Below are positions 5,436-57,640 of a stretch of 64,000 bases of DNA, one piece after another. Within the stretch, counting starts at the first letter, position 1. Every line of letters begins with the position of its first letter. The notes beneath the pieces were generated by a model. That model did not search any database. It worked only from the letters and a program-made list of their open reading frames with translations, and had not been told where the DNA came from. Source of the DNA: a virus. Taxonomy: Duplodnaviria > Caudoviricetes. Position numbers and translations under genes: made by a program. The stretch is taken from IMG/VR virus record IMGVR_UViG_3300002179_000002, positions 11,861-75,860 of that record; one strand, given 5' to 3'.

Positions 5436-5441
5436 GAAAAC

Positions 5442-7093: not shown

Positions 7094-7109
7094 ACAAAAA
7101 TTTAAAGCC

Positions 7110-37803: not shown

Positions 37804-38835
37804 ATGGATTATCAGAAAATTTATGATCAAATAGTTATTAGAGCTAGATCTGAGAATAGAAAAAAGAAACAGGGAATTTACTACGAGAATCATCATATTT
37901 TGCCCAGAGGCTTAGGTGGTAGTGACATTGATGAAAATTTAGTTTTGCTTACTGCCAGGGAGCATTATATCTGTCATAGATTACTAGTTGAGATATATGT
38001 AGGAAATTCAACATTGGCTTATGCTTTGTGGATGATGGTTCATTCAAAGACAAAATTTCAACAACGAGATTATAAAATATCTTCGCGAGAATATGAGAGG
38101 CATCGAATTATGCATGCCGAGAATGTTTCTAAGAATCAAAGTGGAGAGAACTCGTCGTTTTATGGCGTTCATAGATATGGAGAGGATTCTTATAGATGGG
38201 GGATGACGCATACAGAAGAAACTAAATTAAAAATTAGTATTACTAAGACAGGGGTAACAATGTCTGTGGAAGTGAGAGAAGCAATAAGTAAAGGGCATTC
38301 GGGCGAGAAAAGCATATGGTTCGACGTTCATAGATATGGAGAAGATAATCCAAATTTTGGACATTTGTGGACAGAGGAAATGAAACTTAGAGATAAAGAA
38401 ATAATGCTGAATAAAGAAGATATTATTTGCCCCTACTGTGGCGTGTCTGGTCATCCCTCTATAATGAAAAGGTGGCATTTCGATAATTGCAAAATGAATC
38501 CCAATAGAGAGAAGAAATTATTATTTAAGTGTGATTGGTGCGATTATACTAGTGAAAACGAAGTTAACATACGTAGAAGGCATAATGATAAATGCAAAGA
38601 AAATCCAGATAGAATCATAACGATTTATGAGTGCGAATTCTGTGGGTTTACTTCAACTGAAAAAGGACACATTACTAATCATAAACGATTTTGTGAGTTA
38701 AATCCCGAAGGAAAAGCAAGACCCATAATAACTTGCGAATATTGTGGACTACAGAGTACTAATCAAGCTAATATGACACGCTTTCATGGAGACAAATGCC
38801 CCTCTCCAAACAACCCTTTAAATGAACAAGTCTAA
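37804..38835 (+). CDS. Free-standing HNH homing endonuclease with NUMOD3 motifs and four C-terminal CCHC fingers
   Basis: ENHHILPRGLGGSD..ENLVLLTAREHYICH; HTEETKLKIS; four CxxC...H...C units. Confidence 0.85.
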   Translation: MDYQKIYDQIVIRARSENRKKKQGIYYENHHILPRGLGGSDIDENLVLLTAREHYICHRLLVEIYVGNSTLAYALWMMVHSKTKFQQRDYKISSREYERHRIMHAENVSKNQSGENSSFYGVHRYGEDSYRWGMTHTEETKLKISITKTGVTMSVEVREAISKGHSGEKSIWFDVHRYGEDNPNFGHLWTEEMKLRDKEIMLNKEDIICPYCGVSGHPSIMKRWHFDNCKMNPNREKKLLFKCDWCDYTSENEVNIRRRHNDKCKENPDRIITIYECEFCGFTSTEKGHITNHKRFCELNPEGKARPIITCEYCGLQSTNQANMTRFHGDKCPSPNNPLNEQV

Positions 38836-39796
38836 GATCATATCTGAATTCTCCCTCACCACTTTCGGAAGTAAGGGGTTTCTTAAGGGTCAATTGTACT
38901 GTCCAGAATGCAGTCGTAATGATAAGTTTGGAATCCTATTCAAAGAGAACGGAGCTCTCTGTCACTGTTTCTACTGCTCGACATCATACTCCCTCAACAA
39001 GATACTGAGAGATATCGGCAGAACAGACCTGCTCGAGTACGACTTCGATTACGAGCCGACATCTTCGTTGGCTCCCCTCAAGAAAGAAGAGGAGATAGCA
39101 GATGACAAAGACACAAAGCTGCCTATTGGCTTTATGAGGATCAAGCAGGATGACTATCTCGATGCGAGAGGCTTCACGCCTGAGCAGTACGATCAGTTCC
39201 ATGTAGGGGTCGCTGAGTTGGACCCAAAGACTGAGGATAAGATAGTATTCCAACTGTATCAGCACGACGTCCCTGCTGGATGGATGGCGAGGTCCAGGAA
39301 GTCCAAGGAGTGGCATCATGAGAATCTTAGGCGGCACAGAGAGCTTGGAGAGCCACTCGTGCTGAGATACAGGAACTCAAACAATGACTTCAGCAGGATG
39401 CTTGGCGGATTGGACGAGATAATGAAAGACACTCATACTCTGATCTTGGTCGAGGGCATCATGGACAAAGCCAACATAGATCGGTTGATGCATCTGAATG
39501 AGCAGCAGGAGATAAAGTGCTGCTTCACATTCGGCTCTGACCTTAGCATCAACCAGATAGACCTCATTCCAGAGTCAGTAGATACGGTCATACTGATGTA
39601 TGACGCTGGGACCATAAAGATGATGAAGCTGGCTGGAGGCAGGTTGATGTCAAGCTTTGATGTCCAAGTGGCGCTGATAGAGGGCAGAGATGCAGACCCT
39701 GGCAGCATATCTGAAAAAGAATTGTCGAAATTACTTTCTAATCTGAAAAGTTTTATTTATTTTTATAGCTTCCTAGACAACTTCAAGACAATTTAG
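38822..39796 (+). CDS. DNA primase
   Basis: CPEC...CFYC zinc finger; LVEGIMD and MYD TOPRIM motifs; DPG. Confidence 0.88.
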   Translation: MNKSKIISEFSLTTFGSKGFLKGQLYCPECSRNDKFGILFKENGALCHCFYCSTSYSLNKILRDIGRTDLLEYDFDYEPTSSLAPLKKEEEIADDKDTKLPIGFMRIKQDDYLDARGFTPEQYDQFHVGVAELDPKTEDKIVFQLYQHDVPAGWMARSRKSKEWHHENLRRHRELGEPLVLRYRNSNNDFSRMLGGLDEIMKDTHTLILVEGIMDKANIDRLMHLNEQQEIKCCFTFGSDLSINQIDLIPESVDTVILMYDAGTIKMMKLAGGRLMSSFDVQVALIEGRDADPGSISEKELSKLLSNLKSFIYFYSFLDNFKTI

Positions 39797-43411: not shown

Positions 43412-43434
43412 ATAATCAAACCCAATTTCGCAAT

Positions 43435-43509
43435 ATGCTCGTAAAATTCAAAGAACTTCGTGAAGGTTTTGTCTTACCTAAAAAGCATTTGATACTGAAC
43501 GTCACATGA
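43435..43509 (+). pseudogene. Probable remnant of a trimeric dUTPase N-terminus
   Basis: MLVKFKELREGFVLPK, continuing AFDT after a one-base shift, resembles the dUTPase start (VKxKKL...LPxKA..TDAG); the rest of the gene is absent. Confidence 0.45.
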
Positions 43510-43532
43510 GCAGATACTCTTCTGCTCATTTC
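43506..43532 (+). terminator. Hairpin / putative terminator
   Basis: Perfect 9-bp stem atgagcaga/tctgctcat with only a short T tail. Confidence 0.5.
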
Positions 43533-43539
43533 AACTATT

Positions 43540-43612
43540 ATCTATAATCTTTACAAATTTCACTTTTATTTTATATCATTTGTAAAATAGAAGTATAAAT
43601 GTTATACTTTTA
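43540..43612 (+). promoter_or_regulatory. Promoter with upstream palindrome (43540-43558) and TACTTTTA (43605-43612)
   Basis: Variant of the recurrent architecture; heads the modification cluster. Confidence 0.5.
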
Positions 43613-43639
43613 CAGAGTCACAACTATAAGATATCAACC

Positions 43640-44476
43640 ATGAGAACTGACAGAGAATTGAGAAACATGACCACCATCCAGTTGGGGAAAGAAGCAACAC
43701 TATTAGGAATAACAAAAACAGGAATAATGGATAAAGTTAAATTAATCGAGAAGATCAAAGTAGCTCAGGCTGCAACGCCAGCATCTGATGAATACACTGA
43801 TCGCAACAGCGATATCATCGCAGCAGATGACAGGGCAAATTTCAGGGTAGGGGGCAAGTGGTTCCCTGGCACAATTACAAAATTCAAATCAATCGAGGAC
43901 GACCAGTATGCGTATGCTCTGCTGGACGGAAGCGAAAAAGTAAAGATGTTCCACACTATGGACGTCGAATTGGACAAGAACGCAAAATCTAAAAGCAATA
44001 TGAAGAAGAAAGAAGTTCCTCAGGAGCAAGTTGAGGAAGTAAAGAAAGAATCAAAGAAGGCAGTGCTCGCTGAGCTCCTTGAGCAGCCATCAGTTGAAGA
44101 ACAGGAAGTAGAACAGGTAGAAGAGCAAGAAGTTGCCCCTATTGAAGTAAAAACATCTACTCGTACCTCGCTGCCTCCAGCATCCATGAAGATCGCAAAA
44201 GCAGACGCTCCAGTCATCAAGACGAAAGAGGCTGATAAGAACATTGCCAAAGACAAGAAAGCTCCTGCAGCATCGTCAGATGACATGCTTGCATGTATTT
44301 TCGCCAAGGGCGATGATGTGACATTCACATCTGCCAAGAACTCCAAGCTGGCTTCTAATCAGGAGCTGAAGGGCAAAGTTGTATCTGTCAAGACTGATAA
44401 GGGCAAGTACTGGCTGTCCATCAAAGTAGAGGGCTTGGGACACTTCATGAAAGAGGCATCTAAATGCCAGAAGTAA
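43640..44476 (+). CDS. Hypothetical protein (Rho-N/HeH-like N-terminus, two SH3-like domains, acidic linker)
   Basis: MTTIQLGKEATLLGI...KVKLIEKI; two beta-barrel-like segments. Confidence 0.6.
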   Translation: MRTDRELRNMTTIQLGKEATLLGITKTGIMDKVKLIEKIKVAQAATPASDEYTDRNSDIIAADDRANFRVGGKWFPGTITKFKSIEDDQYAYALLDGSEKVKMFHTMDVELDKNAKSKSNMKKKEVPQEQVEEVKKESKKAVLAELLEQPSVEEQEVEQVEEQEVAPIEVKTSTRTSLPPASMKIAKADAPVIKTKEADKNIAKDKKAPAASSDDMLACIFAKGDDVTFTSAKNSKLASNQELKGKVVSVKTDKGKYWLSIKVEGLGHFMKEASKCQK

Positions 44477-44781
44477 ATCAGATCACGGTGACTCCTGACT
44501 CATCCAAACTGGGCCAGGAGTTCCTAGATGCTCTCGATAGAGTGCTCATCACCAGAGCAGATAGAGCAGATCAGTATGGAGACACCTATCTCGGAGACGA
44601 CTATATGTTCCTCTACTATCAGGTGCTCAACAAGATGAAGCGATTCAAGCTCCAGATGAGCATGGAGAGCGGACAAGAGCAGATAATCAACAGAGAGGTG
44701 GCTCTGGACTCAGCCATCGATTGCGCAAACTATGCAATATTCATAATAGCAAAGATTCTGAAAGATGAGAGTGAGAGATAA
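44464..44781 (+). CDS. Nucleotide-modification-associated domain protein (DUF1599/NMAD-like)
   Basis: RADQYGD...KMKR...DSAIDCANYAIF. Confidence 0.7.
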   Translation: MPEVNQITVTPDSSKLGQEFLDALDRVLITRADRADQYGDTYLGDDYMFLYYQVLNKMKRFKLQMSMESGQEQIINREVALDSAIDCANYAIFIIAKILKDESER

Positions 44782-46006
44782 CTATATCCTCGGCGCAGGC
44801 ATAAGCGGCCTAATATACGCTTACTACAACAGAGATTTCACGATCATATCCCCAGATATCGGGGGCAAGCTCAACAACAAATTCTTCGAGAACATATTCT
44901 ACCTACACGCCACTCCATTCACCGAGAGGCTGCTCGAGGACCTCAAGCTCCCAATAGTAAAGAAGACGCAGCTCATAAAATATGTCAAGTCTGACAAGAT
45001 ATTGACAAAGCTCACGATAGAGGACAAGAAGAAGTTCATATCGAAGAAGCTCAACGACCCTGAGTTCGACGCTAAAGACCTCTCGCTCAGCACCAGCGAC
45101 AACTTCATCTCAGTCTTCGAAGTATCGTTCCAGGACATCCTATCCAGACTGAGAGAGGGAGTAGAGGTCATAAATGAGACGGTCATCAAGATAACTGAGA
45201 CAGAGATCATCACTCACGACACTCGATACAAATATGACAAGCTGGTCTCGACTATCAGCGCCAGAGCATTCTGGGGCATGTACTACCAGCAGAGGACCGA
45301 GGAGCTGAAATCTGAGACGATAACCTTCCTATTGTGCGATAAGCTACCTGATTGCCTCTCGAAAGAGAAGTTCGACCTCGCTTATTTTGTGGACGCAGAT
45401 GTCAAGTACACCAGAATATCAAAGCGTAGGAGGGACCAGTCTGACGCATTCCTATATGAGTTCTCAGGGAGGCTATCTCAAGAGGACTGCGTAGAGCATC
45501 TCCCTACTGGAGCAGCAGTGTTGGACTTCTATCACGAGATCGATGGACTCATATTCTCTGACAGCAATAACATACCTCCTAACAGAGTGGAGTTTGTGGG
45601 CAGGTTCGCCACTTGGGACCACTCATTCAAGCAGCAGGATGTCATTGAGAAGGCTCTATCATCATTCGATATGTCCAACATCTGGAACATGCAGAAGAGA
45701 TTCACTTCCAATTTCGTGGACTTCAACAGCCTGACCGAGACTCATCAGAGGGAATCGCTCACGAAGGACTACTTCACAGCCATGATCATAGAGCTATCCG
45801 AAGTGATGAATGAGATTAACTACAAGCAGCACAAGCCGAAGAAGACGGTGGACATAGATCTATTATCCGAAGAGCTCATAGATGCGTTCAAGTACTTCGT
45901 CAACATCTGCCTGATGTGGGACATAACTCCCCAGAAGTTCATTGAGTTATTCGAGATGAAATCAAAGAAAGTCACAGAGAGATATGAGAAACAAAAACAG
46001 CAGTAA
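44765..46006 (+). CDS. FAD-dependent oxidoreductase (UDP-galactopyranose mutase/HemY-like) fused to an all-alpha dUTPase/dCTPase domain
   Basis: ILGAGISGL, YDKLVSTI and GRFATW; C-terminal ELSEVMNEINYKQH...EELIDAFKY. Confidence 0.8.
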   Translation: MRVRDNYILGAGISGLIYAYYNRDFTIISPDIGGKLNNKFFENIFYLHATPFTERLLEDLKLPIVKKTQLIKYVKSDKILTKLTIEDKKKFISKKLNDPEFDAKDLSLSTSDNFISVFEVSFQDILSRLREGVEVINETVIKITETEIITHDTRYKYDKLVSTISARAFWGMYYQQRTEELKSETITFLLCDKLPDCLSKEKFDLAYFVDADVKYTRISKRRRDQSDAFLYEFSGRLSQEDCVEHLPTGAAVLDFYHEIDGLIFSDSNNIPPNRVEFVGRFATWDHSFKQQDVIEKALSSFDMSNIWNMQKRFTSNFVDFNSLTETHQRESLTKDYFTAMIIELSEVMNEINYKQHKPKKTVDIDLLSEELIDAFKYFVNICLMWDITPQKFIELFEMKSKKVTERYEKQKQQ

Positions 46007-46008
46007 AA

Positions 46009-46893
46009 ATGAAAATAGAGAAGATAAAGAGAATGTTTGAGATTAAACAAGGAGAGATACCGAAGACTAAGTTCATCGACAACCTATCTGCAGTCCAAGT
46101 GGACATGATCGACTGGCCAGATCCAGAGAGATTGAAACGAGTATTCGTGAACATGAGCCAGGCATCTTGGTTTGAGAACTTCTACGACAATGCTACTCCA
46201 GAAGACAGGGACGAAGTGGTCAATGACCTATTCTCGGGAAAGATACTCGGCCAGGGCATGGAGCACCCTCAGTTCTGCTTCATAGTCAAGGGACTCTCCC
46301 TGCACGGAACGCACGCCCTAGTCAGGAACAGGATAGGCATAGCATACATGCAGCAGTCACAGGCTGTGAAGGATTTTAGGCACTCAGATGTGCTTGTCCC
46401 GAGGGCATTCACCAAGCTACCCGACATGCTCAAACGATACGAAGAATGGGTCCAACAGGGAAAGAGGCTGTACGCCGACATGCTCGACTCTGGAGAGATA
46501 GCAAACACTGACGCAAGGTTCTGCCTCCCTAAGACGATACCTTCTTGGATATACGTAGCAGTCGCTCTGCCCACCCTACTGTCGATCTATGGCAAGCGTA
46601 CCGACTCCCAAGAGGAGCACCCAGAGATGAATGCCATGGCTGAGCAGATGAGGAATCTGATAGTAGATAAATTCCCATACATGGCGTCCTATTTCGTGTC
46701 GCACGATGACAATGGCAAGTGCCTGCATCTTAGAAAGGGGTACGCCGCAAACTGCATCTTCAAACGAGATGAGGATCACGCTATCGAGGGATATACAGAT
46801 GAGTGGACATTACACGATAAGACTAAGCAGGAGCTCATGCTCGACTGCGAGAAGTATAAGGGCTCATACTACATAGGAGGTGATAAGATATGA
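46009..46893 (+). CDS. Divergent ThyX-like flavoprotein
   Basis: MEH..F.F..KG, THALVRNRIGIAYMQQS and DARFCLP; the canonical RHRxxSxxxxSxR motif is altered. Confidence 0.75.
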   Translation: MKIEKIKRMFEIKQGEIPKTKFIDNLSAVQVDMIDWPDPERLKRVFVNMSQASWFENFYDNATPEDRDEVVNDLFSGKILGQGMEHPQFCFIVKGLSLHGTHALVRNRIGIAYMQQSQAVKDFRHSDVLVPRAFTKLPDMLKRYEEWVQQGKRLYADMLDSGEIANTDARFCLPKTIPSWIYVAVALPTLLSIYGKRTDSQEEHPEMNAMAEQMRNLIVDKFPYMASYFVSHDDNGKCLHLRKGYAANCIFKRDEDHAIEGYTDEWTLHDKTKQELMLDCEKYKGSYYIGGDKI

Positions 46894-47747
46894 TGATACA
46901 AGACATATACAGGCGCGAGCCATGGAAGATGCTCGTCTGCTGCATCCTGCTCAACCAGACTACTGGAGTGCAAGTCAAGAAGATGATGAGAGAGTTCTTC
47001 AGGACGTTTCCTACTCTCAATGACTTAAGGGACATAGATGAGAATACTCTGGCAGGAGAGATTGAGAGTTTGGGGATGCAGAATGTGAAGGCAAAGAGAA
47101 TAAAAGCTTTCGTAGCATCTTTCACTGAAGATGTAGATGTTATGAAGGACTCAGTCATAGGGTATCCTGGACTAGGGAGCTATGCTTGCGAATCAGCAGA
47201 TGTCTTCATATGCAGGAATAATGATGTCAAGCCAGAAGACAAAGAGATCTCATCCTATCTCTCAAAGATTGAGACGGGAGATGTGTTCGTAGAGGGAATG
47301 AGAAAGTATCTAGAATTATGCGGAGTCGAGAGAGTCACTGTTGGTTGTAGAGTCAAAGAGATACTGAACCACTCGTATCATTTCTTCTCCAACGTATTCT
47401 GGCGCATCACAGATGATAGACTTCCCTATGTGAAGGATAAGTTGATCATGTATAGAACTGCTCTAAGAGACGCCATAAAGCGACTTGAGAGAGACAATAC
47501 GAGTCGACAGGCGATCATTCAGTTCGATCAGAGCGATCCATTGCCAAACTGCACAGTATCTATTCAGTTCCAGATCAAAGACGACATCCTATTCACCACA
47601 GTCTACCAGAGGTCTCAGGACATTGATAAAGTGGAGATGGACTGCGAGATATTCGCTCTCATGTCTCTCGAAGTCATAAAAGCTATTGAGGGCGTTGATG
47701 ATTATCGAGTTGCAGTATTTGTTGGAAACTTTCATCTATATCTATAG
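46890..47747 (+). CDS. MBD4-like HhH-GPD DNA glycosylase fused to a thymidylate synthase/dCMP hydroxymethylase-like domain
   Basis: PWKMLVCCILLNQT...PGLGSYA..S..VF....VKPED; C-terminal SRQAI...PNCT..IQF...YQRSQD...GNFHLY. Confidence 0.8.
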   Translation: MMIQDIYRREPWKMLVCCILLNQTTGVQVKKMMREFFRTFPTLNDLRDIDENTLAGEIESLGMQNVKAKRIKAFVASFTEDVDVMKDSVIGYPGLGSYACESADVFICRNNDVKPEDKEISSYLSKIETGDVFVEGMRKYLELCGVERVTVGCRVKEILNHSYHFFSNVFWRITDDRLPYVKDKLIMYRTALRDAIKRLERDNTSRQAIIQFDQSDPLPNCTVSIQFQIKDDILFTTVYQRSQDIDKVEMDCEIFALMSLEVIKAIEGVDDYRVAVFVGNFHLYL

Positions 47748-47748
47748 G

Positions 47749-50700
47749 ATGGAGAAACTGATAAGACATCTAGAGGACAACAAGCTGGACTATGAGACTC
47801 TCGAGATCAAGAGCAAGTTCAAGATAGCAGATCAGACTTTCGAGTTCATCTGGCCAGACTCCACTGGCAGGCTATTCGATGATGACCTGCATCTACAAGC
47901 AGATGATACAGACTGCGACAATTATGCATTTAGATTCGGTGGGGACTACTACTACATAAACAAAGCAGACAAGGATAAACCGACATTCAAAGAGCTCAGA
48001 TATATTGGCCAGTCGAAGAGAGAGATAGAGACTGATGCTTTTCTTGGAGTCAGAGGGGCGTATGAGATACTCAATGGCTCTAGAATCTATGAGGACTGGT
48101 GCGCTAAAGCAAAGTTCTTGGGAGTCAAATCTCTCGGCATCATAGAGAAGAACACATTGGCTGGAGCTCTCAAGTTTCAGATTGAGTGCAAGAACCTCGA
48201 TATCAAGCCGATACTTGGAGCGACTTACACTGTCGTCAGGAAGGGCGAAGATTACAAGCAGGATATCAAGTGCTTCGCAAAGTCAGAGACTGGCTGGACC
48301 AACCTACTGATGATCAACAAAGAGGTCAATGTCATCAACAACAAGTTCATATACGAGGATAGGTTCATAGAGCTCTTGGAGGATGTGATAGTGATCGTAG
48401 ATCCAAAGAGTGGATCATATGATAAATTGGGCAGGATGAGGAGCTACATGAAGTACTATCAGCTGGATACTGTCATATATAATGATCAGTCCAAAGATCA
48501 GGAGTATCTTCTGAATCTAAAGGCGTTTGTCAGAGATGGCAGCCTGAAGCCGATATTCATATGCGATGCATTCTACCTAGATAGGGATCACAGCCACATA
48601 AAGAAGACGCTGAATGGGATATCTGGAGTCAGGGAGTATGAGTCATCCAACCAGTATTTCAAAGACGCCGATGACTATCTGGCAGAGTTAGAGCTGTTAT
48701 TCTCTACAGAGGATGAGTCGTTCTACGATATAGCATCAAAAGCCATCAAGAATGCCAACACACTGTCTGAGATCTGCAACTTCCAGATCGATACAGAGCA
48801 CTTCTATCTGCCTGACTATGTACTAACAGAGGAGCAGTTAACGAAGTATAAGGATAAGATAGACCTATTCTGGGGCCTCATAGGCGAGGGGATGGATGAG
48901 AAATGCTCGGACGAGGACAGAGAGAAATATCTGGACAGGATTGAGATAGAGTATTCAGTCATCATGAAGGGCCAGAATCTGATTGATTACTTCCTCATCC
49001 TATGGGATATCATAGACTGGTGCGGCAAACAGAACATATTAGTCGGATATGGCCGAGGATCATCTGCTGGAAGTCTCATCGCATACCTATTGGGGATAAC
49101 CAACATCGATCCATTCGAGTACGACCTCCTGTTCGAGAGGTTCTTGAATGAGAATAGGGTCAAGAAATCAATCCCTGACATTGACTCAGACTTTGAGGGA
49201 CTGAGAAGGGATGAGGTAAAGCACTATATGGAGCAGAGATTCGGATACGATCAGGTGTGCTCTGTAGGGACATACGGCAACCTGAAACTGAAGATGATAT
49301 TCACAGACCTTGCAAAACGTAGCAACATTCCTATTCAGGAGGTCAAGATGATGACAAGCATACTCGGAGAGGGAGAGAAGGACGGCACCGATTGGTCTGA
49401 GATATTCCATCTTGCATCTAAGTCTCAGAAACTGAAGGACTTTGTGATGCGCAATCCAGACATAGTTCACGACGCTAAATTGTGTCTGATGCAGCCTAGA
49501 TCTGGATCAGTCCATGCATGCGCCACCATCATCACTCCAGCAGACAAGGACATCTATCACTGGTTCCCAGTCAAGAAGGTCCTATCTAAAGATGGAGAGG
49601 AGCTGCTCGTCAGCGAGTGGGAGGGCATTCAGCTGGACAAAGCAGGATTCTTAAAAGAAGATATATTAGGTATTCAACAATTGGATAAGTTCGCCAGCTG
49701 CATAAAGCTCATAGAGGAGAACAAGGGGATAAAGATCGACTTCAAGAAGATACCATTAGATGACGATGCTGTATATAGGTACTTTGGAAAGGGGTGGAAC
49801 TCTGATGTGTTCCAGTTCGGGACTCAGGGACTGAAGAAATATACTAAAGAATTGAAGCCTGATTCGATGGAAGAGCTCAGCGCAACCAATGCATTATATC
49901 GTCCTGGCGCCATGAAATCTAATGCTCACAATGACTTTGTGATGATTAAATGGGGTATGAAAGAGCCTGAATACGACTATATGCTTGAAAGTGTGACTAA
50001 AAAGACTTACGGTCTATATATCTACCAAGAACAGACAATGAGGGCTGCTCAGGTACTTGGCGGATTCACTTTAGTTGAGGCAGACATGATGAGAAAAGTG
50101 ATGCTTGGCAGGGGAAAGAAACAGTTTAGAGATCAGTTCTATATCTATCATGATAAATTTGTTTTGGGAGCTGTAGCAAATGGATGCGAAGCAAGTGTTG
50201 CAGAAAAGATCTGGGATAAGCTAGAAGCGTTTGCGGGTTACGGGTTTAATGCCAGCCATGCGGCTGCCTATGCGATAACTGGGTATATTAGTCAGTGGTT
50301 TAAGGTCAATCACCCAATCGAATTCTGGACTACAGCATTCAAGTTTGCTAAAGATGAATTGGTAGCTGATTTCATATCTGAGATCCATGCCACTGGAGCC
50401 ATAAAGATATCTCCACCAGACATAAATGAGTCGCTGTTCGATATGACTTCGAACTTCAAGAAGAACACCATCTACTGGGCGCTCACGAGCATCAAGTCAG
50501 TCGGTGGAGTTGCTGCTGAGCAGATCATGAAAGATAGGGATGAGAATGGACCATATTTCAGCTTCGAGGAGTTCCTGAGCAGGCACACTTTCAAGGGCAG
50601 CAAGGTCAACAAGACTCATGTAGAGAATCTCATATTCTCAGGTGCATTCGACAAGGTCGAGGAGATAGAGGACTCTCTCAAGCGCAAGCGACTGATAGAC

Positions 50701-51189
50701 TTCTACCGGACTGAGAAGAAGACTAAGATAGATGCCGAGAAGGATCTCATGACGCTGAGCGAGAAGGACATCTCCGATGACTGGTGGTGGGACCTCAGGC
50801 AGAAGAGGCTGACTGGCATAGCATTCTTCGACTACAAGACTATGTGCGACAAGTATCTGACAGATGGAAAGTATCTCGATCAGGATGAGTGGCAGTCAGA
50901 GTCGCTAAGTAACATCTACTACTCGATAGGCGGCTACATAGTAGAGGTGATTGAGCGGACATCCAAGAAGAGTGGCAAATACTGCTCGATCAGGATTGAG
51001 AGCAACTACACATTCATCTGGGTGTCTATATTTCCCTGCCAGTATCAGCAGCTCACAAAATCTGGCATCGAGCTGATAGGACAGGAGGGCAACATCCTAC
51101 TGCTCACAGGGATGATCAAACTCGACACCTACAAGAAAGAGAACGCATGCAAGTTCTGGGACAACAGCGAATTAGTAATCTTAAAATAA
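47749..51189 (+). CDS. dnaE: DNA polymerase III alpha subunit (start corrected to ATG 47749)
   Basis: GYGRGSSAGSL, LLFERFLN, PDIDSDF, KEDILG, LYRPG and YGFNASHAAAY motifs; PHP domain. Confidence 0.95.
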   Translation: MEKLIRHLEDNKLDYETLEIKSKFKIADQTFEFIWPDSTGRLFDDDLHLQADDTDCDNYAFRFGGDYYYINKADKDKPTFKELRYIGQSKREIETDAFLGVRGAYEILNGSRIYEDWCAKAKFLGVKSLGIIEKNTLAGALKFQIECKNLDIKPILGATYTVVRKGEDYKQDIKCFAKSETGWTNLLMINKEVNVINNKFIYEDRFIELLEDVIVIVDPKSGSYDKLGRMRSYMKYYQLDTVIYNDQSKDQEYLLNLKAFVRDGSLKPIFICDAFYLDRDHSHIKKTLNGISGVREYESSNQYFKDADDYLAELELLFSTEDESFYDIASKAIKNANTLSEICNFQIDTEHFYLPDYVLTEEQLTKYKDKIDLFWGLIGEGMDEKCSDEDREKYLDRIEIEYSVIMKGQNLIDYFLILWDIIDWCGKQNILVGYGRGSSAGSLIAYLLGITNIDPFEYDLLFERFLNENRVKKSIPDIDSDFEGLRRDEVKHYMEQRFGYDQVCSVGTYGNLKLKMIFTDLAKRSNIPIQEVKMMTSILGEGEKDGTDWSEIFHLASKSQKLKDFVMRNPDIVHDAKLCLMQPRSGSVHACATIITPADKDIYHWFPVKKVLSKDGEELLVSEWEGIQLDKAGFLKEDILGIQQLDKFASCIKLIEENKGIKIDFKKIPLDDDAVYRYFGKGWNSDVFQFGTQGLKKYTKELKPDSMEELSATNALYRPGAMKSNAHNDFVMIKWGMKEPEYDYMLESVTKKTYGLYIYQEQTMRAAQVLGGFTLVEADMMRKVMLGRGKKQFRDQFYIYHDKFVLGAVANGCEASVAEKIWDKLEAFAGYGFNASHAAAYAITGYISQWFKVNHPIEFWTTAFKFAKDELVADFISEIHATGAIKISPPDINESLFDMTSNFKKNTIYWALTSIKSVGGVAAEQIMKDRDENGPYFSFEEFLSRHTFKGSKVNKTHVENLIFSGAFDKVEEIEDSLKRKRLIDFYRTEKKTKIDAEKDLMTLSEKDISDDWWWDLRQKRLTGIAFFDYKTMCDKYLTDGKYLDQDEWQSESLSNIYYSIGGYIVEVIERTSKKSGKYCSIRIESNYTFIWVSIFPCQYQQLTKSGIELIGQEGNILLLTGMIKLDTYKKENACKFWDNSELVILK

Positions 51190-51193
51190 ATAT

Positions 51194-51517
51194 ATGACAA
51201 ATCAAGAATTTCTAACCTATCACCAAGAGTGTTTAGATAAACTCAAATCTATCGTGGCGTCCAAGAATCACGACTATGCTGGCTTCAGCAAGGACGACTG
51301 TTTCGCCAATTTCAAGCTGGTCGAGAATATCGGTATAGCGTCCGCAGAACAGGGCTTCCTGACTCGGATGATGGATAAGGTGTCTCGAGTCAATTCGTTC
51401 GTCCAGCAGGGCGTGCTTAACGTAGCAGACGAGAAGATCGAGGACACATTGTTGGACCTCGCAAACTACTCGATATTGATGGCTGGCTATATCAAATCAA
51501 AGAAAGAGGGAATATGA
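51194..51517 (+). CDS. Nucleotide-modification-associated domain protein (DUF1599-like)
   Basis: KNHDYA...FANF...RMMDKVSR...EDTLLDLANYSIL. Confidence 0.8.
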   Translation: MTNQEFLTYHQECLDKLKSIVASKNHDYAGFSKDDCFANFKLVENIGIASAEQGFLTRMMDKVSRVNSFVQQGVLNVADEKIEDTLLDLANYSILMAGYIKSKKEGI

Positions 51518-51843
51518 AGATCTATCTAGCAATACCCTATAGTGGCTTCGAAGAGGAGAGCTTCTCAGTAGCCAATAAGATCGCAGCAGAACTCATGCTA
51601 GAGGGTCACATCGTCTTCTCTCCCATCTCGCACACTCATCCCATTGCTTTATCGGGAGATCTTCCCAAAGGATGGCAGTACTGGAAGACTTTCGATGAAT
51701 CATTTATCGAGTGGTGCGACCAATTGGCCGTAGTCATAATGAAGAATCAGGGCGAGGAGAGAGTTAGAAATAGTCAAGGAATTGCTGGAGAATTGACTCT
51801 AGCAGATGTTTATAATAAACCAATCTACTACATAAAAGAATGA
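51514..51843 (+). CDS. DUF1937 / nucleoside 2-deoxyribosyltransferase-like protein
   Basis: IYLAIPYS...VFSPISHTHPI...WCD...SQG...E. Confidence 0.75.
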   Translation: MKIYLAIPYSGFEEESFSVANKIAAELMLEGHIVFSPISHTHPIALSGDLPKGWQYWKTFDESFIEWCDQLAVVIMKNQGEERVRNSQGIAGELTLADVYNKPIYYIKE

Positions 51844-52556
51844 GACTAATAAAACCATATTTCGAGATCATCACTCCTATTAATGGAGAACAGATTCTGA
51901 ATCAAATTGAACTAGCAGCAAGAACCTGTTATAAGTCAGAAGATAGAATAGCTCCTGGTTCTGCTGAAAAACTTATCAAGAATGTTTTAATGGCTAGAGG
52001 ACATAATGCCATGCTTGAATTCGGTGGAATGATTACAGTCAAATTTGTCTGCGACAGAGGCGTATCACATGAATTAGTTCGGCATAGATTAGCTTCTTTT
52101 GCTCAAGAAAGCACAAGATTCTGCAATTATACAGATGATAAGTTCAGTAATGGGGAAGTTACTTTTATCATTCCATGTTGGCTAAATATTCCAGAAGGAC
52201 AATATGTCTGGTGGGATGGCGACTATTGCGACGTATCAAAAATGGAGATAATGGTGTCAAATGAACAAATGAAAGAAGACACTAAGCTTAATTCATTTTT
52301 AGTTGCATTAGATCAATGTGAAAGTTCTTATAAAATGATGGTTAATACTGGCTGGACTCCTCAGCAGGCTAGAGCAGTATTACCTAACTCTCTAAAGACT
52401 GAGATTAATATGTCAGCCAATATCCGGGAGTGGAGAGAAATATTCAGACAAAGAACTGCCAACGCTGCTCATCCACAGATGCAAGAACTGATGAGACCTC
52501 TATTGAAAGAGTTCCAGAATAGAATCTCTATCTTATTTGACGATATAACTTATTAA
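51840..52556 (+). CDS. thyX: FAD-dependent thymidylate synthase
   Basis: Canonical HELVRHRLASFAQESTR, ARAVLP and AHPQM motifs. Confidence 0.95.
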   Translation: MRLIKPYFEIITPINGEQILNQIELAARTCYKSEDRIAPGSAEKLIKNVLMARGHNAMLEFGGMITVKFVCDRGVSHELVRHRLASFAQESTRFCNYTDDKFSNGEVTFIIPCWLNIPEGQYVWWDGDYCDVSKMEIMVSNEQMKEDTKLNSFLVALDQCESSYKMMVNTGWTPQQARAVLPNSLKTEINMSANIREWREIFRQRTANAAHPQMQELMRPLLKEFQNRISILFDDITY

Positions 52557-52573: not shown

Positions 52574-52644
52574 GTTTATACTCTATATAAATAATCTAGA
52601 AGTATAAAATTTATATTTTCGTAAGGATTTAATTTGTAATTTTA
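52574..52644 (+). promoter_or_regulatory. Promoter with upstream palindrome (52574-52592), TTCGTA box and TAATTTTA (52637-52644)
   Basis: Recurrent architecture. Confidence 0.6.
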
Positions 52645-52663
52645 CATCGTAAAAATAATTTAA

Positions 52664-52849
52664 ATGAAAGATTTAGAAAGTAAAGTTCAAAAGTATCTTA
52701 ATAAAGGAATAGACTGGGATACGTTCAAAAACAAATTCCCAGAATCAGCAGTTCTAATTGAGATAGCTATGAAAGACATAGCCATCGATTATTGGAGCAG
52801 GTATAAAAATAGAAAAAATGAGCAAAGTAGTAGTTCCCTTCGGGGGTAA
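52664..52849 (+). CDS. Hypothetical protein
   Basis: First ORF after the promoter. Confidence 0.5.
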   Translation: MKDLESKVQKYLNKGIDWDTFKNKFPESAVLIEIAMKDIAIDYWSRYKNRKNEQSSSSLRG

Positions 52850-53366
52850 AGCAGTGATTCTTTCATTCGGTGATTTTGATGAAGAAATAGATGTTGATGA
52901 ACTGACATCTATCCAATATGATAATCTCTTTGGAGAGATAGTCACAGTATCAGCACTCCTCAATCGTATAGGTATTCTAAAGGCAGAAACTGAAGCAGCT
53001 TATTCACATAAGAAACTTGAGTGTGATATATATGAAGCTAACCTTGCAAAACAGTACCGTAGGGAAGCAAATATTAACTCGGGGAAGTTTACTATACCCG
53101 ATGGTATTGGTGAGACTTCTATAAAACTTACAGAGGAGTCACTCAAATCAGCTATATTGCTTGATATAGCCTACCAGAATAAGAAAAAGGGAGTGATAGA
53201 AGCACAGAAGAATCTTGCTTTCATGGATTCCCTATATTGGTCAATACAATCTAAGGATAAGAAGCTATCAGTCATAATGAAACCTACTACCCCTGCTGAT
53301 TTTTGCAATGAGATAATTGAGGGATCAGTTAATGGTATAATGATTAAGAAAGTAACACTTGAATAA
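52818..53366 (+). CDS. UvsY-like recombination mediator
   Basis: Helical ORF with KLTEESLKSAI..D..YQ...KDKKL; lies near SSB and RecA. Confidence 0.55.
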   Translation: MSKVVVPFGGKAVILSFGDFDEEIDVDELTSIQYDNLFGEIVTVSALLNRIGILKAETEAAYSHKKLECDIYEANLAKQYRREANINSGKFTIPDGIGETSIKLTEESLKSAILLDIAYQNKKKGVIEAQKNLAFMDSLYWSIQSKDKKLSVIMKPTTPADFCNEIIEGSVNGIMIKKVTLE

Positions 53367-53373
53367 AATGACA

Positions 53374-53565
53374 ATAAAAGAAAGAAGTTCAGAACAAACA
53401 GATGAAGATGGAAGCGCTGTTATGAATGCATTAAATATTGCATTGAAATACGGTCTAACCGTAGAAGTCGTTCTTATGGCTTTATATGAAGCACAAGAAA
53501 ATCCAGAAATCAGTATATCTAAAATAATGCAAGGCGCACTAGAAGATTGGGATATTAGCGAATAA
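53374..53565 (+). CDS. Hypothetical protein
   Basis: Operonic ORF; the start is probably an ATG a few codons into the listed ORF (approximate). Confidence 0.45.
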   Translation: MKERSSEQTDEDGSAVMNALNIALKYGLTVEVVLMALYEAQENPEISISKIMQGALEDWDISE

Positions 53566-53619
53566 AGAGACTCAGACGAGTAAACAAATATAATTAATAA
53601 ACAATTTAATATAATTAAA

Positions 53620-55017
53620 ATGGCAGAAGTTTTTAACAGAAATAGGTTCCAAGGTGGGACGATCAATTCAATCAAGGAAGAGGAGAAGAGAGCAGAGGCT
53701 GCTATCCCTCAGTCCGGCAATTACTCGGGACGAGCAGGATTCTTCAACATCGAGGATGGCAAGAACGTATTTCGCATTGCTCCATCACACAACACAAATG
53801 AGCCAGCCTATCGTGCTAAGTCAACAGTCATCTTAGAGTGTGAAGTTTCCGAGATTGACAATGATGGCAAAGAGACTGGCAAGAAAGAGATGAAGAGGAA
53901 AAACATCTTCATAGCTACCCAACATTCTACTACACTTCAGAGTGACCCTATCCTGCTCTACATTGAGTTCGTCAACAAGAGAGCTACCGATGAGATCCAA
54001 GATAAAGATGAGAGATCAAAGTTCTTATCGCCTATCACAGGATGGAGAGGTAAAGACAAGAAGTGGAACTGGGGCATCAAACCCTCTGTGACATACGTAT
54101 GCTATGTATGGAACTCAAAGGGTGAGCTTGGACGTCTTGAACTTTACCCTTCTATCTTAGATGATATGAAGAAAGTATCAGTAGCACAAGCAGATGATGA
54201 TGCTGAGATTATTCCTGATATCTTTACTGCACCCGATGAGGGATATCCACTTATTATTATCAAAGAGAAGAACGATAAAGATAAGATGGAATATAATGTG
54301 TCTTGTGAACTTCCTACTAAGAAAGAATCCTGGGATGACTTCTTCAAGAGGACACAGCTTAACGATGACCAATTAATTGAATTTCTAACTAAAGAAACAC
54401 TTGCTGAGCTTTACAAAGATGTCTATACTACCAGGGACTTCAGTCTTGCTTTAGATGGTCTACAGAGATTTGATAAGCAATACAAGTTTGAGATCTTTGA
54501 GAATGAAGAGTTCCTTGAGAAACTTACTGAACTTAAAAAACTTGTCCCTGAATATAAAAGTAGAGATGAGAAAGAAGTAGGTGAGATGATTAAAGAGAAA
54601 CCTGCAGAGACTAAATCTAACAAACCTGCTCCTGCTTCCAACACTAATGTTCCTGCTCCTACTAATAATGCTTCTCCAGTAAGCTCTACACCTGTTCCAG
54701 CTATGAAACGTATCATCAAAGAATACATTGCTGAGAATTATGGTGCTGATTATTCATTACCTGAACTTTCTAAGGAAGACCTAATAGTATGGTATGATTT
54801 AGTACAACAAGGTGAAGAATTACCTTTTGATCTTGATCAATCAGAAGAGAAACTTGAAGAGCAAGCTACTCAAAAAGTAGAGAAAGCATATCAGGATATT
54901 GCTGCAAAAGAGGTAAAGAAAGAAGAAGTGAAACCTGAACCTAAATCTGTAGTCAATGTTCCTGAGAACGATGAACGGGCTGCTCAGATAGCTGCATTAA
55001 GAAAACGTAGAGGATAG
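53620..55017 (+). CDS. Single-stranded DNA-binding protein (gp32-like)
   Basis: GKNVFRIAP, DIFTAPDEGYPLII and YNVS motifs; acidic extension; replication context. Confidence 0.7.
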   Translation: MAEVFNRNRFQGGTINSIKEEEKRAEAAIPQSGNYSGRAGFFNIEDGKNVFRIAPSHNTNEPAYRAKSTVILECEVSEIDNDGKETGKKEMKRKNIFIATQHSTTLQSDPILLYIEFVNKRATDEIQDKDERSKFLSPITGWRGKDKKWNWGIKPSVTYVCYVWNSKGELGRLELYPSILDDMKKVSVAQADDDAEIIPDIFTAPDEGYPLIIIKEKNDKDKMEYNVSCELPTKKESWDDFFKRTQLNDDQLIEFLTKETLAELYKDVYTTRDFSLALDGLQRFDKQYKFEIFENEEFLEKLTELKKLVPEYKSRDEKEVGEMIKEKPAETKSNKPAPASNTNVPAPTNNASPVSSTPVPAMKRIIKEYIAENYGADYSLPELSKEDLIVWYDLVQQGEELPFDLDQSEEKLEEQATQKVEKAYQDIAAKEVKKEEVKPEPKSVVNVPENDERAAQIAALRKRRG

Positions 55018-55033
55018 ACATTTCGCAAACACA

Positions 55034-55066
55034 AAGGGAGAGGTAGAACAACTCTCCCTTAATTTT
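55034..55066 (+). terminator. Rho-independent terminator
   Basis: Stem aagggagag/ctctccctt followed by aatttt. Confidence 0.7.
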
Positions 55067-55076
55067 AATCTTCATT

Positions 55077-55274
55077 ATGAACAAAGAAACAAAAGAAATA
55101 ACTCGTAGCGATATAAAAGAAGATGTTAAACGATATAAGAAATATATAAATGCTATAGAATCAGCTCCACATAAATATCGGAATGATTCTACAGTCAAAA
55201 ATGTCTTATCGTTTAGAGATAAAAATGGATATAATTTTGTTTCTGATGAAAATGGAATAAAAATAATAGAATAA
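55077..55274 (+). CDS. Hypothetical protein
   Basis: Short ORF before the nuclease gene. Confidence 0.5.
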   Translation: MNKETKEITRSDIKEDVKRYKKYINAIESAPHKYRNDSTVKNVLSFRDKNGYNFVSDENGIKIIE

Positions 55275-55283
55275 ACAATTATT

Positions 55284-56330
55284 ATGAAACATCCTATTAC
55301 AATCATTTCGACAGACTGGCATCTGAAACAAGATAATATTAAGCAACTCAAGTTCCTCATTACACAGAAATGCGAATTAGCTCAAGAATTAGGAGTTAAA
55401 ACAGTATTCTGCTTAGGCGATATCTTTGAGAGCAGAACAGGGCAACAACAAGAGACATTGGCTTCATTGAGTGAGATACTTGAAATATTTGAAGAGTATC
55501 AGATTACACTTATTGCTATACCCGGAAATCATGATAAAAATTTTTATACAAGTGCTAAAAGTTATTTAATTCCATACAAACACCATCCCTATTTTCATTT
55601 AGTAAGTGAATCAATGGATTTTGCAATTGAAGATGTGAACTTTTGTCTTCTACCTTATTTTAAAGAAAATCTTTGGTTAGAGAAGTATAAAAATTTAACC
55701 CTTCCAGAAGTAGCATTGATGAGAAAAGGATTAAAAAACATATTCCTTTCTCACATCGCGATGAATGGATCAGTCAACAATGATGGTTCAAAAGTATCTT
55801 GTAATATATCAGTAGGCAACTTCAAAGAATGGGACTTGGTATTACTTGGCCATTATCATAATGCGCAACAGGTAGGGGTCAACGTCTTTCATATACCTTC
55901 TATTCAACAAAACAACTTTGGTGAGGATGCCGATAAAGGCTTTACGGTGGTTTATGATGATTGTTCTACTGAAATGGTTAAGTCTGATTTCAGGGAATTT
56001 GAAAAGATCACTATCAATCTAGACACTATTTCAAAGACTGATTTTAATACCTTGGTCAAAACACATTCCAACAGTGAAAAGAATATCAGGTTCGAATTGA
56101 TAGGTTCTACTGATAAAGTAAAGTCAATCAATAAAGAGGAACTTGGTGCACTTGGTATATCTGTTTCTATTAAGATAAAAGAAATTGAGGACACCATCGA
56201 ATATGCAGAACAGGAGATTAAAGAATTCAACAGCACTAACATCATAGATGAATTTGCTGAGTTCTGCAAGGAAAAAGAAAAGGACTATGATAAGGGAGTA
56301 ATTTACTTACAAAAGAAATTAGCAGTATAA
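55284..56330 (+). CDS. SbcD/Mre11-like recombination nuclease subunit
   Basis: TDWH, LGDIF, GNHD and GHYH metallophosphoesterase motifs. Confidence 0.9.
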
Positions 56331-57313
56331 TGGATGAAAAAGCACAGAAAATAATCTCTACTGCTATTGACAGTATTGAGAAGAAATTCGGACGAGGAAG
56401 TATCGTAAACTTTGAAGAGAATGTAGAAGGAGTTGAATTTTCTTCTACTGGCTCCTTGGGACTTGATTATGCTCTGGGCGGAGGTTTTCCAAAGGGACGT
56501 ATTATTGAAATCTATGGCCCTGAGAGCTCAGGAAAGTCAACTTTAGCACTACACGCTATTGCAGAAGTGCATAAGAATGGAGGCGTAGCTGCCTATATTG
56601 ATGCTGAAAATGCTTTTGATAAAGTATATGCTAAGAACTTAGGAGTTGATCTTTCAAAGGAAGCATTCCTATTCTGCCAACCAGATAATGGAGAGCAAGC
56701 ACTTGAAATCACAGAGACATTGATAAGAACTGGAGAAATTGATATTATTGTTATTGATTCAGTGGCAGCATTAGTTCCTAAGGCTGAAATAGATGGGGAA
56801 ATGGGTGATTCTAAAATGGGGTTACATGCAAGGCTGATGGGACAGGCAATGAGGAAACTTGTAGGGTGTGTTAATAAGACACACACTATAGTAATATTTA
56901 TTAACCAACTGCGTGATAAACTGGGAGTTATATATGGGAGCCATGAAACTACAACTGGAGGGAATGCTCTTAAATTCTATGCTTCTCAAAGATTAGACAT
57001 CAGACGTATAGCTACTAATAAGATAGGAGAAGAATCTGTATCGAATAGAGTTAAAGTGAAAGTCATAAAAAACAAAGTTGCTCCCCCTCTAAGACTTGCT
57101 GAATTTGATATTTTATTCGGAATCGGAATTGATAGATTGGCAGAATTAATTGACTTGGCTACTGAACTTGAAATTATTAAGAAATCAGGTAGCTGGTATA
57201 GTTATGAAACGACCAAGTTAGGCCAAGGTGGAGAAAAGGTCAAAGAACTCTTACTTGACAATGAAGAGTTAGTTGAAGAGATTGAAATAAGAGTTAAAAA
57301 ACTATTAAAGTAA
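56330..57313 (+). CDS. recA: Recombinase RecA
   Basis: [21 protein letters not shown] and [10 protein letters not shown] motifs. Confidence 0.97.
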
Positions 57314-57318
57314 GATAA

Positions 57319-57633
57319 ATGGAACACAATTTTGAAAGTTTATTCGAAAGGGTATCAGAATTCCAGGATAAAGTATTTAAAGATCAAACTGCTTTAAGTA
57401 AATCTATTCATTTACAAAGAGAAGCCAAAGAATTAACTGAGTCTCTAAATGGTTATGATTTTAATGAAACTAAAATGGAATTAGCTGATTGTCTTATTCT
57501 ATTATTGGGGACAGCCAAGAAACTTGGACTTAGTGCAAACGAATTAATTGAAGATAGTTTTATCAAACTTATTATCTGTGAACATAGAGAGTGGGATAAA
57601 GCTGATGAACAAGGAGTATATCACCATAAATAA
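57319..57633 (+). CDS. DUF550/MazG-like dNTP pyrophosphohydrolase
   Basis: HLQREAKEL...ELADC...K....REW......HHK. Confidence 0.75.
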   Translation: MEHNFESLFERVSEFQDKVFKDQTALSKSIHLQREAKELTESLNGYDFNETKMELADCLILLLGTAKKLGLSANELIEDSFIKLIICEHREWDKADEQGVYHHK

Positions 57634-57640
57634 TATATAA

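Follow-up and report, generated by a model that had tools for sequence, protein, structure and literature searches.

The 64,000-nt stretch analysed here (the window, bases 11861-75860 of the record IMGVR_UViG_3300002179_000002; all coordinates below are positions in it) comes from an uncultured peat phage with a genome of roughly 110 kb. At 44464-47747 it carries a 3.3-kb cassette whose core is four genes in a fixed order: a small helical protein, a fusion of a flavin adenine dinucleotide (FAD) domain to a MazG-type pyrophosphatase (FAD-MazG), a paralogue of the flavin-dependent thymidylate synthase ThyX, and a minimal domain of the thymidylate synthase (TS) fold (mini-TS), which in the window is fused to an MBD4-like DNA glycosylase (Table 1). 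We read this core as a pre-replicative pathway for C5 modification of a deoxypyrimidine nucleotide, most probably deoxycytidine monophosphate (dCMP), by flavin chemistry and with coupled mismatch repair, and we hold this reading with about as much confidence as doubt. By analogy with known systems, a C5-modified dCMP is the most likely product; the exact product cannot be named.

The four-gene arrangement is not chance: six further, mutually distinct phage loci from metagenomes (L002, L003, L004, L005, L007 and L009) have the core with its gene order preserved. These were found by alignment-based scans of viral and metagenome contigs (L002-L011), in which L008, identical to L004, and L010 and L011 repeat L004 and L007; L006 gave only a weak TS-like match and was set aside, and L003, whose contig begins within the cassette, has three core genes out of four. 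The preliminary description of this locus, made from the letters alone, had held that its proposal would fall if the genes did not co-occur in other genomes, and they do. The dnaE gene adjoins the cassette in four of the seven loci (window, L004, L007, L009), and the mini-TS is encoded as a stand-alone protein within the cassettes of L005 and L007. Several relatives carry additional genes: an epimerase/dehydratase of the short-chain dehydrogenase/reductase (SDR) family in or next to the core (L002, L003, L005), radical S-adenosylmethionine (radical-SAM)/SPASM genes inside the cassettes of L004 and L005 (2530-3492), a dCMP deaminase gene that separates the ThyX paralogue from FAD-MazG (L009), and, in L005, an RNase T-type exonuclease, a canonical ThyX and a UDP-glucose dehydrogenase. 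The deaminase, radical-SAM/SPASM, SDR and UDP-glucose dehydrogenase genes are of kinds typical of nucleotide or base tailoring. In L004 a sulfotransferase-family gene lies upstream of dnaE (this gene and the radical-SAM/SPASM gene of that locus are at 1463-2317 and 6798-7706), and in L009 an N6/N4 DNA methylase gene (5415-6326) lies 650 nt downstream of the cassette.

The preference for dCMP is drawn from the mini-TS, the C-terminal part of a 285-aa fusion protein (46890-47747) whose model, built on 22 homologues, has a predicted local distance difference test (pLDDT) score of 92.4. The Pfam match (24.8 bits) covers positions 112-211 of the 266 in the Thymidylat_synt profile, and residues 128-285 superpose best on the flavin-dependent dCMP monooxygenase 9iqc (VIA Z 15.5, root-mean-square deviation (rmsd) 2.2 over 157 residues), a match tied within one Z unit with ordinary thymidylate synthases (Z 14.5-14.3; 6auj 14.5). 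In the HMMER alignment to TS chains the phage Cys falls on Cys146, QRSQD on QRSCD (Arg166, Ser167, Asp169) and GN.H on GD.H (His207). Judged by this modelled fold and by the counterparts of Cys146, Arg166, Ser167 and His207, the domain belongs to the TS superfamily (ThyA fold). It ends just after the His207-Tyr209 stretch, with 152-157 residues aligning within TS spans of about 210, and lacks around 100 residues of a normal TS, including folate-contacting segments. At position 177, where enzymes acting on deoxyuridine monophosphate (dUMP) have Asn, it has Asp; neither Asn177 nor the full length of about 264 aa of a ThyA forming deoxythymidine monophosphate (dTMP), with its folate-contacting N- and C-terminal segments, is present. 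According to a study of TS homologues, N177D confers preference for dCMP (PMC13326640).

These features extend well beyond the cassette. A profile search of 1.84 billion representatives returned 861 proteins with E≤1e-3, of which 75 reach E≤1e-10, the latter corresponding to at least 75 clusters at 50% identity, and 54 of these 75 strongest relatives are 150-174 aa long, the size of a stand-alone protein. Among the best 150 of the profile matches, Cys146 is conserved in 148, Arg166 in 148, Ser167 in 146, Asp177 in 147 and His207 in 141, and position 169 is Asp in 121 and Asn in 9. Arg126, which like Arg166 and Ser167 is a phosphate-binding residue of the mononucleotide enzymes, is also kept. 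On this sequence evidence the mini-TS forms a sizeable family within the dCMP-type branch, whose members mostly stand alone, and the family appears unstudied.

The second core component worth considering is the 413-aa FAD-MazG protein, modelled on 26 homologues with a mean pLDDT of 89.9. Its FAD part begins with GxGxxG and has the two-domain FAD fold; Foldseek matches it to renalase (4zcc, E 4.8e-12) as well as to UDP-galactopyranose mutase (UGM) and amine oxidases, and VIA gives Z 22.5 to UGM 4dsg and Z 19.9 to protoporphyrinogen oxidase (PPO) 4ivm. No Pfam family matches this part, which fits the UGM, PPO and renalase subfamilies alike; its nearest look-alikes in the ESM Atlas include numerous viral proteins that stand alone, measure about 305 aa and lack Pfam families, which we treat as a lead only. 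The C-terminal part matches dUTPase_2 at residues 303-404 (27.4 bits against a cut-off of 22.9), and the fusion also matches the NTP pyrophosphohydrolase family phrog_173. Residues conserved in at least 90% of the 26 homologues include G10, G12 and G15 of GxGxxG and the acidic residues E343, E346, E370 and D373 of MazG. We take the paired acidic motif ExxE ... ExxD to be the hallmark of all-alpha NTP pyrophosphatases, and the family match and acidic motifs together identify residues ~296-413 as a predicted member of this group (MazG/dUTPase_2). The fusion of an FAD oxidoreductase to a dNTPase, proposed in the preliminary description, is thus borne out by the modelled fold, the dUTPase_2 match and the retained acidic tetrad.

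The ThyX paralogue is the most conserved member of the cassette, with 57-80% identity between loci. Aligned as a profile of 32 homologues to the ThyX proteins of C. glutamicum and M. tuberculosis, it differs in the substrate motif by RHR to RNR, a one-residue insertion, the first Ser to Ala and Arg-Tyr to Ala-Val, the second motif Ser being retained. The rewritten motif (RNR, Ala, Ala-Val) is fixed across the 32 homologues, which share as little as 33% identity; conservation reaches at least 90% for A119 and V120, and the two downstream arginines R170 and R197 are invariant. We take R197 to be the Arg of the ThyX uracil cavity. The paralogue also retains the equivalents of Arg78, Arg80 and Ser88 (also R147 and R174) and the HPxM stretch, with Arg90 changed to Ala and His79 to Asn. 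In ThyX the residues that form hydrogen bonds to dUMP are Arg78, Arg80, Ser88 and Arg90 (T. maritima numbering), and the uracil cavity contains an Arg that is strictly conserved (PMC3498832); 46009-46893 lacks Arg90 and with it the full dUMP-bonding set. Its sequence suggests a pyrimidine pocket that is mostly kept but without Arg90, and a uracil-type substrate is more likely than a cytosine-type one, because the two arginines lining the uracil pocket are retained. The paralogue further differs from canonical flavin-dependent thymidylate synthases (those of T. maritima, M. tuberculosis and PBCV-1), with which it shares a Thy1 match over threshold, in a C-terminal extension in which C238, H240, C249, H257 and H269 are at least 90% conserved. 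This Cys/His extension (residues 238-280) is a possible metal site, and some relatives of 359-409 aa (e.g. P0057, P0070) have a further 65-115 C-terminal residues without a Pfam match.

A canonical ThyX is encoded in the same block. Its translation carries the RHRLASFAQESTR motif, RHR..S....S.R being intact, and aligns to solved ThyX chains (3ge9, 1.2e-15). The block therefore encodes three TS-type domains, only one of them canonical, as had been proposed (Thy1 for the two ThyX proteins, Thymidylat_synt for the mini-TS). Divergent and canonical ThyX coexist both in the window and in L005, which argues against redundancy.

The link to DNA repair comes from the glycosylase domain. It matches MBD4 4ew4 (phmmer 7.5e-10), and residues 1-134 superpose on the MBD4 glycosylase domain 4ofa (VIA Z 17.5, rmsd 2.3 over 131 residues). 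An Asp aligned to the Asp of the MBD4 PED motif is kept in 17 of the 18 fusion proteins, as are G94 and G96. From numbers re-derived by alignment offsets, we take the PED Asp to be the catalytic D560 of human MBD4, and the Arg of its LNRTSG motif to be the Arg468 (R468) finger. The HhH-GPD domain, the hairpin glycines and the aligned Asp indicate that 46890-47270 is a glycosylase domain of the MBD4 type, and the glycosylase-TS fusion claimed in the preliminary description stands. The Glu of 'ACES', considered as a counterpart of the MBD4 catalytic Asp, was rejected, since the alignment offsets point to the conserved PED Asp. Compared with the MBD4/Mig-type G:T mismatch glycosylases, which it resembles in sequence, in fold and in the Asp aligned to D560, the phage protein has Gln at the position of the LNRTSG Arg in 15 of 18 fusion proteins, and it carries a TS fold as its fusion partner and no methyl-CpG-binding domain. 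No C5 DNA methyltransferase that could otherwise account for a T:G glycosylase was found in the 75.9-kb record.

The MBD4-like HhH-GPD domain is joined to the mini-TS in 18 of 22 matches, and in another protein, P0150, the mini-TS carries instead a C-terminal domain of the uracil-DNA glycosylase (UDG) superfamily (Pfam 9.5e-15), with family-4 UDGs as its nearest solved relatives. The same mini-TS is hence found joined to two glycosylase folds, unrelated to each other, whose members excise deaminated cytosine, and the P0150 fusion is a second, independent link. In the P0150 domain a GINPS motif replaces the usual family-4 motif; an assignment as MUG/TDG-like, made from this motif, was withdrawn given those nearest solved relatives.

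A model combining these data begins with the MazG domain, which would hydrolyse a canonical pyrimidine deoxynucleoside triphosphate (dCTP and/or dUTP) to the monophosphate, both excluding it from DNA and feeding the pathway; we infer this step from the paradigm of T4 gp56 and from the conserved acidic residues. The mini-TS would then bind dCMP through its Asn177-to-Asp pocket, and the conserved Cys, judging from these residues, would attack C6 and so activate C5. The next step is speculative: flavin chemistry of the ThyX paralogue and/or the FAD domain may supply a one-carbon or oxygen group and the reducing power. Flavin delivery seems most likely because the TS fold has lost its folate-contacting parts, two flavoproteins are encoded alongside, and TS homologues can use flavin in place of folate (PMC13326640). 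The substrate of the ThyX paralogue itself may be dUMP or a deaminated intermediate and not dCMP, and the canonical ThyX would make ordinary dTMP. The adjacent DnaE polymerase would incorporate the C5-modified nucleotide, and the MBD4-like domain would remove thymine-like or uracil-like bases opposite G after the modified cytosine deaminates. In its most specific form, the model holds that a folate-independent 155-aa TS core and two flavoproteins (a rewired ThyX, and a UGM/amine-oxidase domain fused to a dNTPase) install the C5 group on dCMP by a chemistry undescribed for either TS family, that DnaE incorporates the product and that the fused G:T-type glycosylase polices its deamination; we offer this version tentatively, as a possibility more doubtful than not.

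Several observations weigh against a dCMP modification pathway. The mini-TS fits no known product signature. In TS homologues hydroxymethylation is associated with an acidic residue at position 143, and flavin-dependent 5-hydroxylation with D169N (PMC13326640). The mini-TS has the N177D of T4-type dCMP hydroxymethylases with Leu at position 143 (also the commonest residue there in the 75 strongest relatives: L 24, K 10 and M 8), and Asp169 is present in 11 of 11 cassette proteins (QRSQD), at odds with the signature of 5-hydroxy-dCMP synthases. A domain about 100 residues short could also be a binding module rather than an enzyme. Companion genes expected from known systems were looked for in the 75.9-kb, 69%-complete record, which yielded no thymidylate-kinase-type dNMP kinase (PF02223; the models used included none specific to T4 gp1-type kinases), no GT1/GT2 glycosyltransferase (PF00534, PF00535) and no dCMP deaminase, and none of the three was found among the 40 window proteins scanned; this agrees with the earlier observation that neither a glycosyltransferase nor a dNMP kinase is recognisable in the window. 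Beside the sugar-nucleotide genes of L005, likewise, no glycosyltransferase was found among 10 neighbours scanned. A uracil-type nucleotide is probably an intermediate in part of the pathway, to judge by the retained uracil-pocket arginines of the ThyX paralogue and by the dCMP deaminase that L009 encodes. The preliminary proposal of a modified dCMP or dUMP is accordingly divided between its enzymes, with the dCMP-type Asp of the TS-like domain speaking for it and the paralogue pocket pointing to a uracil-type rather than a cytosine-type substrate. Finally, all cassette loci are metagenomic. Glycosylation in the relatives, considered from the UDP-glucose dehydrogenase and SDR genes of L005, was dropped, given the result for the 10 neighbours.

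Two further characterised systems offer close comparisons. T-even phages replace cytosine using the dCTPase gp56, the dCMP hydroxymethylase gp42 and the dNMP kinase gp1 (as named in T4), together with glucosyltransferases. The cassette resembles this system in having an all-alpha dNTP pyrophosphatase beside a TS-fold enzyme with Asp177, near replication genes and with a separate enzyme for dTMP. It differs in joining its pyrophosphatase to an FAD domain and in including a ThyX paralogue and a glycosylase, and neither dNMP kinase nor glycosyltransferase was found in the 69%-complete record; its TS fold is also cut to about 155 aa and has Leu143, whereas the hydroxymethylases have Asp/Glu there (PMC13326640). 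The flavin-dependent 5-hydroxy-dCMP synthases (RB69 gp48, DLP3 gp80, HY126 AfhB; 9iqc, 9iqu) are the best structural match, at Z 15.5, and share the dCMP-type Asp and a shortened TS fold. The known enzymes use flavin and not folate (PMC13326640); as to a bound flavin, the mini-TS offers its fold similarity to 9iqc. Unlike them, the mini-TS is without D169N and is about 60-80 aa shorter still, and the known ones are single proteins with neither a ThyX paralogue nor a FAD-MazG partner.

Among other explanations, the one that survives best is that the block only boosts or cleans the ordinary pyrimidine supply and repairs uracil, without any non-canonical base, the MazG domain being a dUTPase, the paralogue a second dTMP synthase with the FAD domain as its flavin reductase, the mini-TS a TS remnant or a dCMP-binding regulator, and the glycosylase a U:G and T:G repair enzyme. 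We consider this unlikely, while granting that each domain does have a housekeeping counterpart, that the paralogue keeps the equivalents of R78, R80, S88, R147 and R174, that dUTPase_2 is the best Pfam match of the pyrophosphatase domain, and that the lack of kinase or glycosyltransferase matches in the record and the unmatched signatures of modifying TS homologues also speak for it. A second dTMP synthase is hard to reconcile with the canonical ThyX that this operon already encodes and that in L005 adjoins the paralogue, or with an altered ThyX motif fixed in 32 aligned homologues; a remnant would not be expected to keep the catalytic residues and the dCMP-type Asp in 141-148 of 150 relatives; and the radical-SAM, SDR and UDP-glucose dehydrogenase genes added in other loci also count against it.

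A different possibility is a conflict over nucleotide pools, in which the cassette would be a counter-defence device, or a phage relative of a bacterial defence system, that reshapes or protects the dNTP pool (e.g. against host dCTP-deaminase or dNTPase defences) and leaves phage DNA as it is. In the DefensePredictor study, bacterial defence systems with TS, dNMP kinase and NMAD domains were validated and others with MazG, dUTPase, NMAD and UDG predicted (PMC13092281). The position of the genes in a replication module, adjoining dnaE in four of seven loci, does not favour this account, nor does the lack of paralogue relatives among 185,579 species-representative genomes with the patterns tried, and the glycosylase fusions point to DNA, beyond the pool alone; we regard it as improbable. 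Least probable of all is a post-replicative pathway in which the glycosylase fold serves as a DNA-binding, base-flipping module and the mini-TS Cys attacks C6 of the flipped cytosine, modifying or deaminating it on the polymer. In its favour, the mini-TS occurs in fusions with DNA-glycosylase domains of two different folds, and glycosylase-fold enzymes with an active-site thiolate do modify pyrimidines in DNA (PMC8989533). Against it, most of the strongest mini-TS relatives (54 of 75) are of stand-alone size and those of L005 and L007 are stand-alone, the mini-TS keeps the phosphate-binding residues typical of mononucleotide enzymes (Arg166, Ser167 and Arg126), free nucleotides are what the MazG domain and the L009 dCMP deaminase act on, and the MBD4-like domain keeps its own putative catalytic Asp.

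The most specific form of the model, if true, would be a new route to modified cytosine DNA, so far only in uncultured phages. Phage DNA modifications decide whether restriction enzymes and CRISPR cut the phage, and they are a source of new nucleic-acid enzymes. All pre-replicative pyrimidine modifications known to us begin with a full-size ThyA-fold enzyme. The cassette holds three uncharacterised enzyme forms, namely a dCMP-type TS core of minimal size, a paralogue of ThyX in which the substrate loop is rewritten and an FAD-dNTPase fusion, and this four-gene unit is compact enough for direct expression and assay. In addition, the fusions of the mini-TS to two unrelated glycosylase folds tie the synthesis of a modified cytosine to the repair of its decay products in a way open to testing.

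The distribution of the cassette is restricted to metagenomic and viral data, where homologues of the glycosylase/mini-TS fusion, FAD-MazG and the ThyX paralogue form 22, 27 and 70 clusters, the last at 35-83% identity. Against 50,697 deposited phage records, megablast of the 8.1-kb stretch and tblastn of the FAD-MazG protein and the mini-TS gave no match, and the best tblastn match of the ThyX paralogue had 24.5% identity, leaving it with no close relative there; the cassette is absent from the cultured phages in this collection. Scans of viral contigs with single proteins (the glycosylase/mini-TS fusion, the ThyX paralogue or P0150) also gave no match. No description of the cassette, the mini-TS or the ThyX subfamily was found in the literature searched, which agrees with the preliminary remark that the combination did not seem to have been described; the list of TS homologues tested in PMC13326640 may bear on the mini-TS.

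Table 1. Genes and domains of the block, with the four-gene core first
Feature	Position	Strand	Family matches and remarks
Small helical protein, 105 aa	44464..44781	+	Always the first gene of the cassette; subthreshold DUF1599/NMAD1-like
FAD-domain/MazG fusion, 413 aa	44765..46006	+	Residues 1-~295, FAD fold; ~296-413, all-alpha MazG/dUTPase_2 pyrophosphatase
Rewired ThyX paralogue (ThyX-div), 294 aa	46009..46893	+	Pfam Thy1 81.5 bits (8.7e-23; cut-off 24.8)
MBD4-like HhH-GPD DNA glycosylase domain, N-terminal ~127 aa of the 285-aa fusion	46890..47270	+	Pfam HhH-GPD 41.1 bits (2.4e-10; cut-off 26.2), residues 16-109
Mini thymidylate-synthase-fold domain, putative dCMP type, about 155-158 aa, C-terminal in the fusion	47271..47747	+	Pfam Thymidylat_synt, residues 192-284
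Lys/Glu-rich protein, 278 aa	43640..44476	+	First gene after the gap; the GC-rich block begins inside it; GC3 0.48
DnaE-type DNA polymerase III alpha	47749..51189	+	Pfam PHP, DNA_pol3_alpha, DNA_pol3_finger, HHH_6; phrog_405 8e-202
DUF1599 (NMAD1) protein, 107 aa	51194..51517	+	Pfam DUF1599 25.9 bits (cut-off 25); phrog_1485 2.7e-15
DUF1937 protein, 109 aa, nucleoside 2-deoxyribosyltransferase-like	51514..51843	+	Pfam DUF1937 5.4e-12, weak Nuc_deoxyrib_tr; phrog_355
Canonical ThyX (flavin-dependent thymidylate synthase), 238 aa	51840..52556	+	Pfam Thy1 128.6 bits (3.3e-37)

The parent virus record is linear, with 75.9 kb and an estimated completeness of 69%, and the stretch is present as contigs in four peat-metagenome runs; no RNA run is among the sequencing runs listed as containing it. 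The genes of the window lie on the + strand throughout. Nine of them are packed into 43640-52556, where neighbours overlap by 4-17 nt or lie 1-4 nt apart if dnaE is taken to start at the ATG at 47749, its likely start in a reading frame open from a TTG at 47686, and this region is one operon-like block. Eight of these genes had been named in the preliminary description; the open reading frames agree with it on their positions and strand, and Pfam and PHROG on its list of families, the assignment of the first (44464-44781) being the one weak point. The sole sizeable intergenic gap, 43412-43639 (229 nt), lies directly before the block; four promoter-like hexamer pairs occur at 43489-43608, a regional count not above that in shuffled sequences.

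The base composition of the block is uneven. GC content at third codon positions (GC3) is 0.46-0.66 for the eight genes of 43640-51843 (cassette, dnaE, DUF1599 and DUF1937), against 0.18-0.35 for most flanking genes, whereas that of canonical thyX is 0.305, matching the phage's own low-GC composition. The cassette and dnaE block hence looks different in origin or codon regime from the resident thyX, which suggests a replication/modification module of such a kind and agrees with the earlier separation of canonical ThyX from the other enzymes. The primase gene (38822-39796) is likewise GC3-rich (0.59). The observed/expected ratio of CpG is 0.46-0.49 in the flanks (1-43600, 52600-64000) but reaches 0.65 within the GC-rich block; TG and CA lie at 1.08-1.22. 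These values are uncalibrated against other low-GC phages.

The 278-aa protein at its start has no Pfam or PHROG family over threshold, and its C-terminal 88 aa are 39% identical to the open reading frame preceding the cassette in L002. Homologues of the 105-aa protein head the cassette in L002, L004, L005, L007 and L009. Of the two genes earlier described as DUF1599/NMAD-like, 51194-51517 passes the Pfam cut-off (Table 1); the 105-aa protein reaches 13.2 bits against DUF1599 (cut-off 25), with three of six family members matching at E≤1, and hhalign pairs it with the 51194-51517 protein at a probability of 22.5% over 47 columns, so that by sequence its DUF1599/NMAD1 resemblance is real but weak. 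Neither of these two proteins has a sequence match in the PDB. Complex prediction for the 413-aa fusion with the 105-aa protein scored 0.00, giving no support, a result that counts neither for nor against their pairing. A DUF1937 homologue comes after the fusion gene in L003.

Elsewhere in the window, 57319-57633 encodes a second, stand-alone all-alpha pyrophosphatase of 104 aa, which matches dATP/dGTP pyrophosphohydrolase, MazG and PRA-PH and directly follows the gene of a UvsX-like recombinase. An RNase T/DnaQ-type exonuclease of 218 aa is encoded at 34008-34664, a similar exonuclease lying within the L005 cassette, and a homing-endonuclease-like gene (37804-38835; phrog_655, 4.9e-54) is flanked by the gene of a DnaB-like helicase and that of the primase. 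At 62192-63181 lies the gene of a 329-aa DUF932 protein (2.4e-43).

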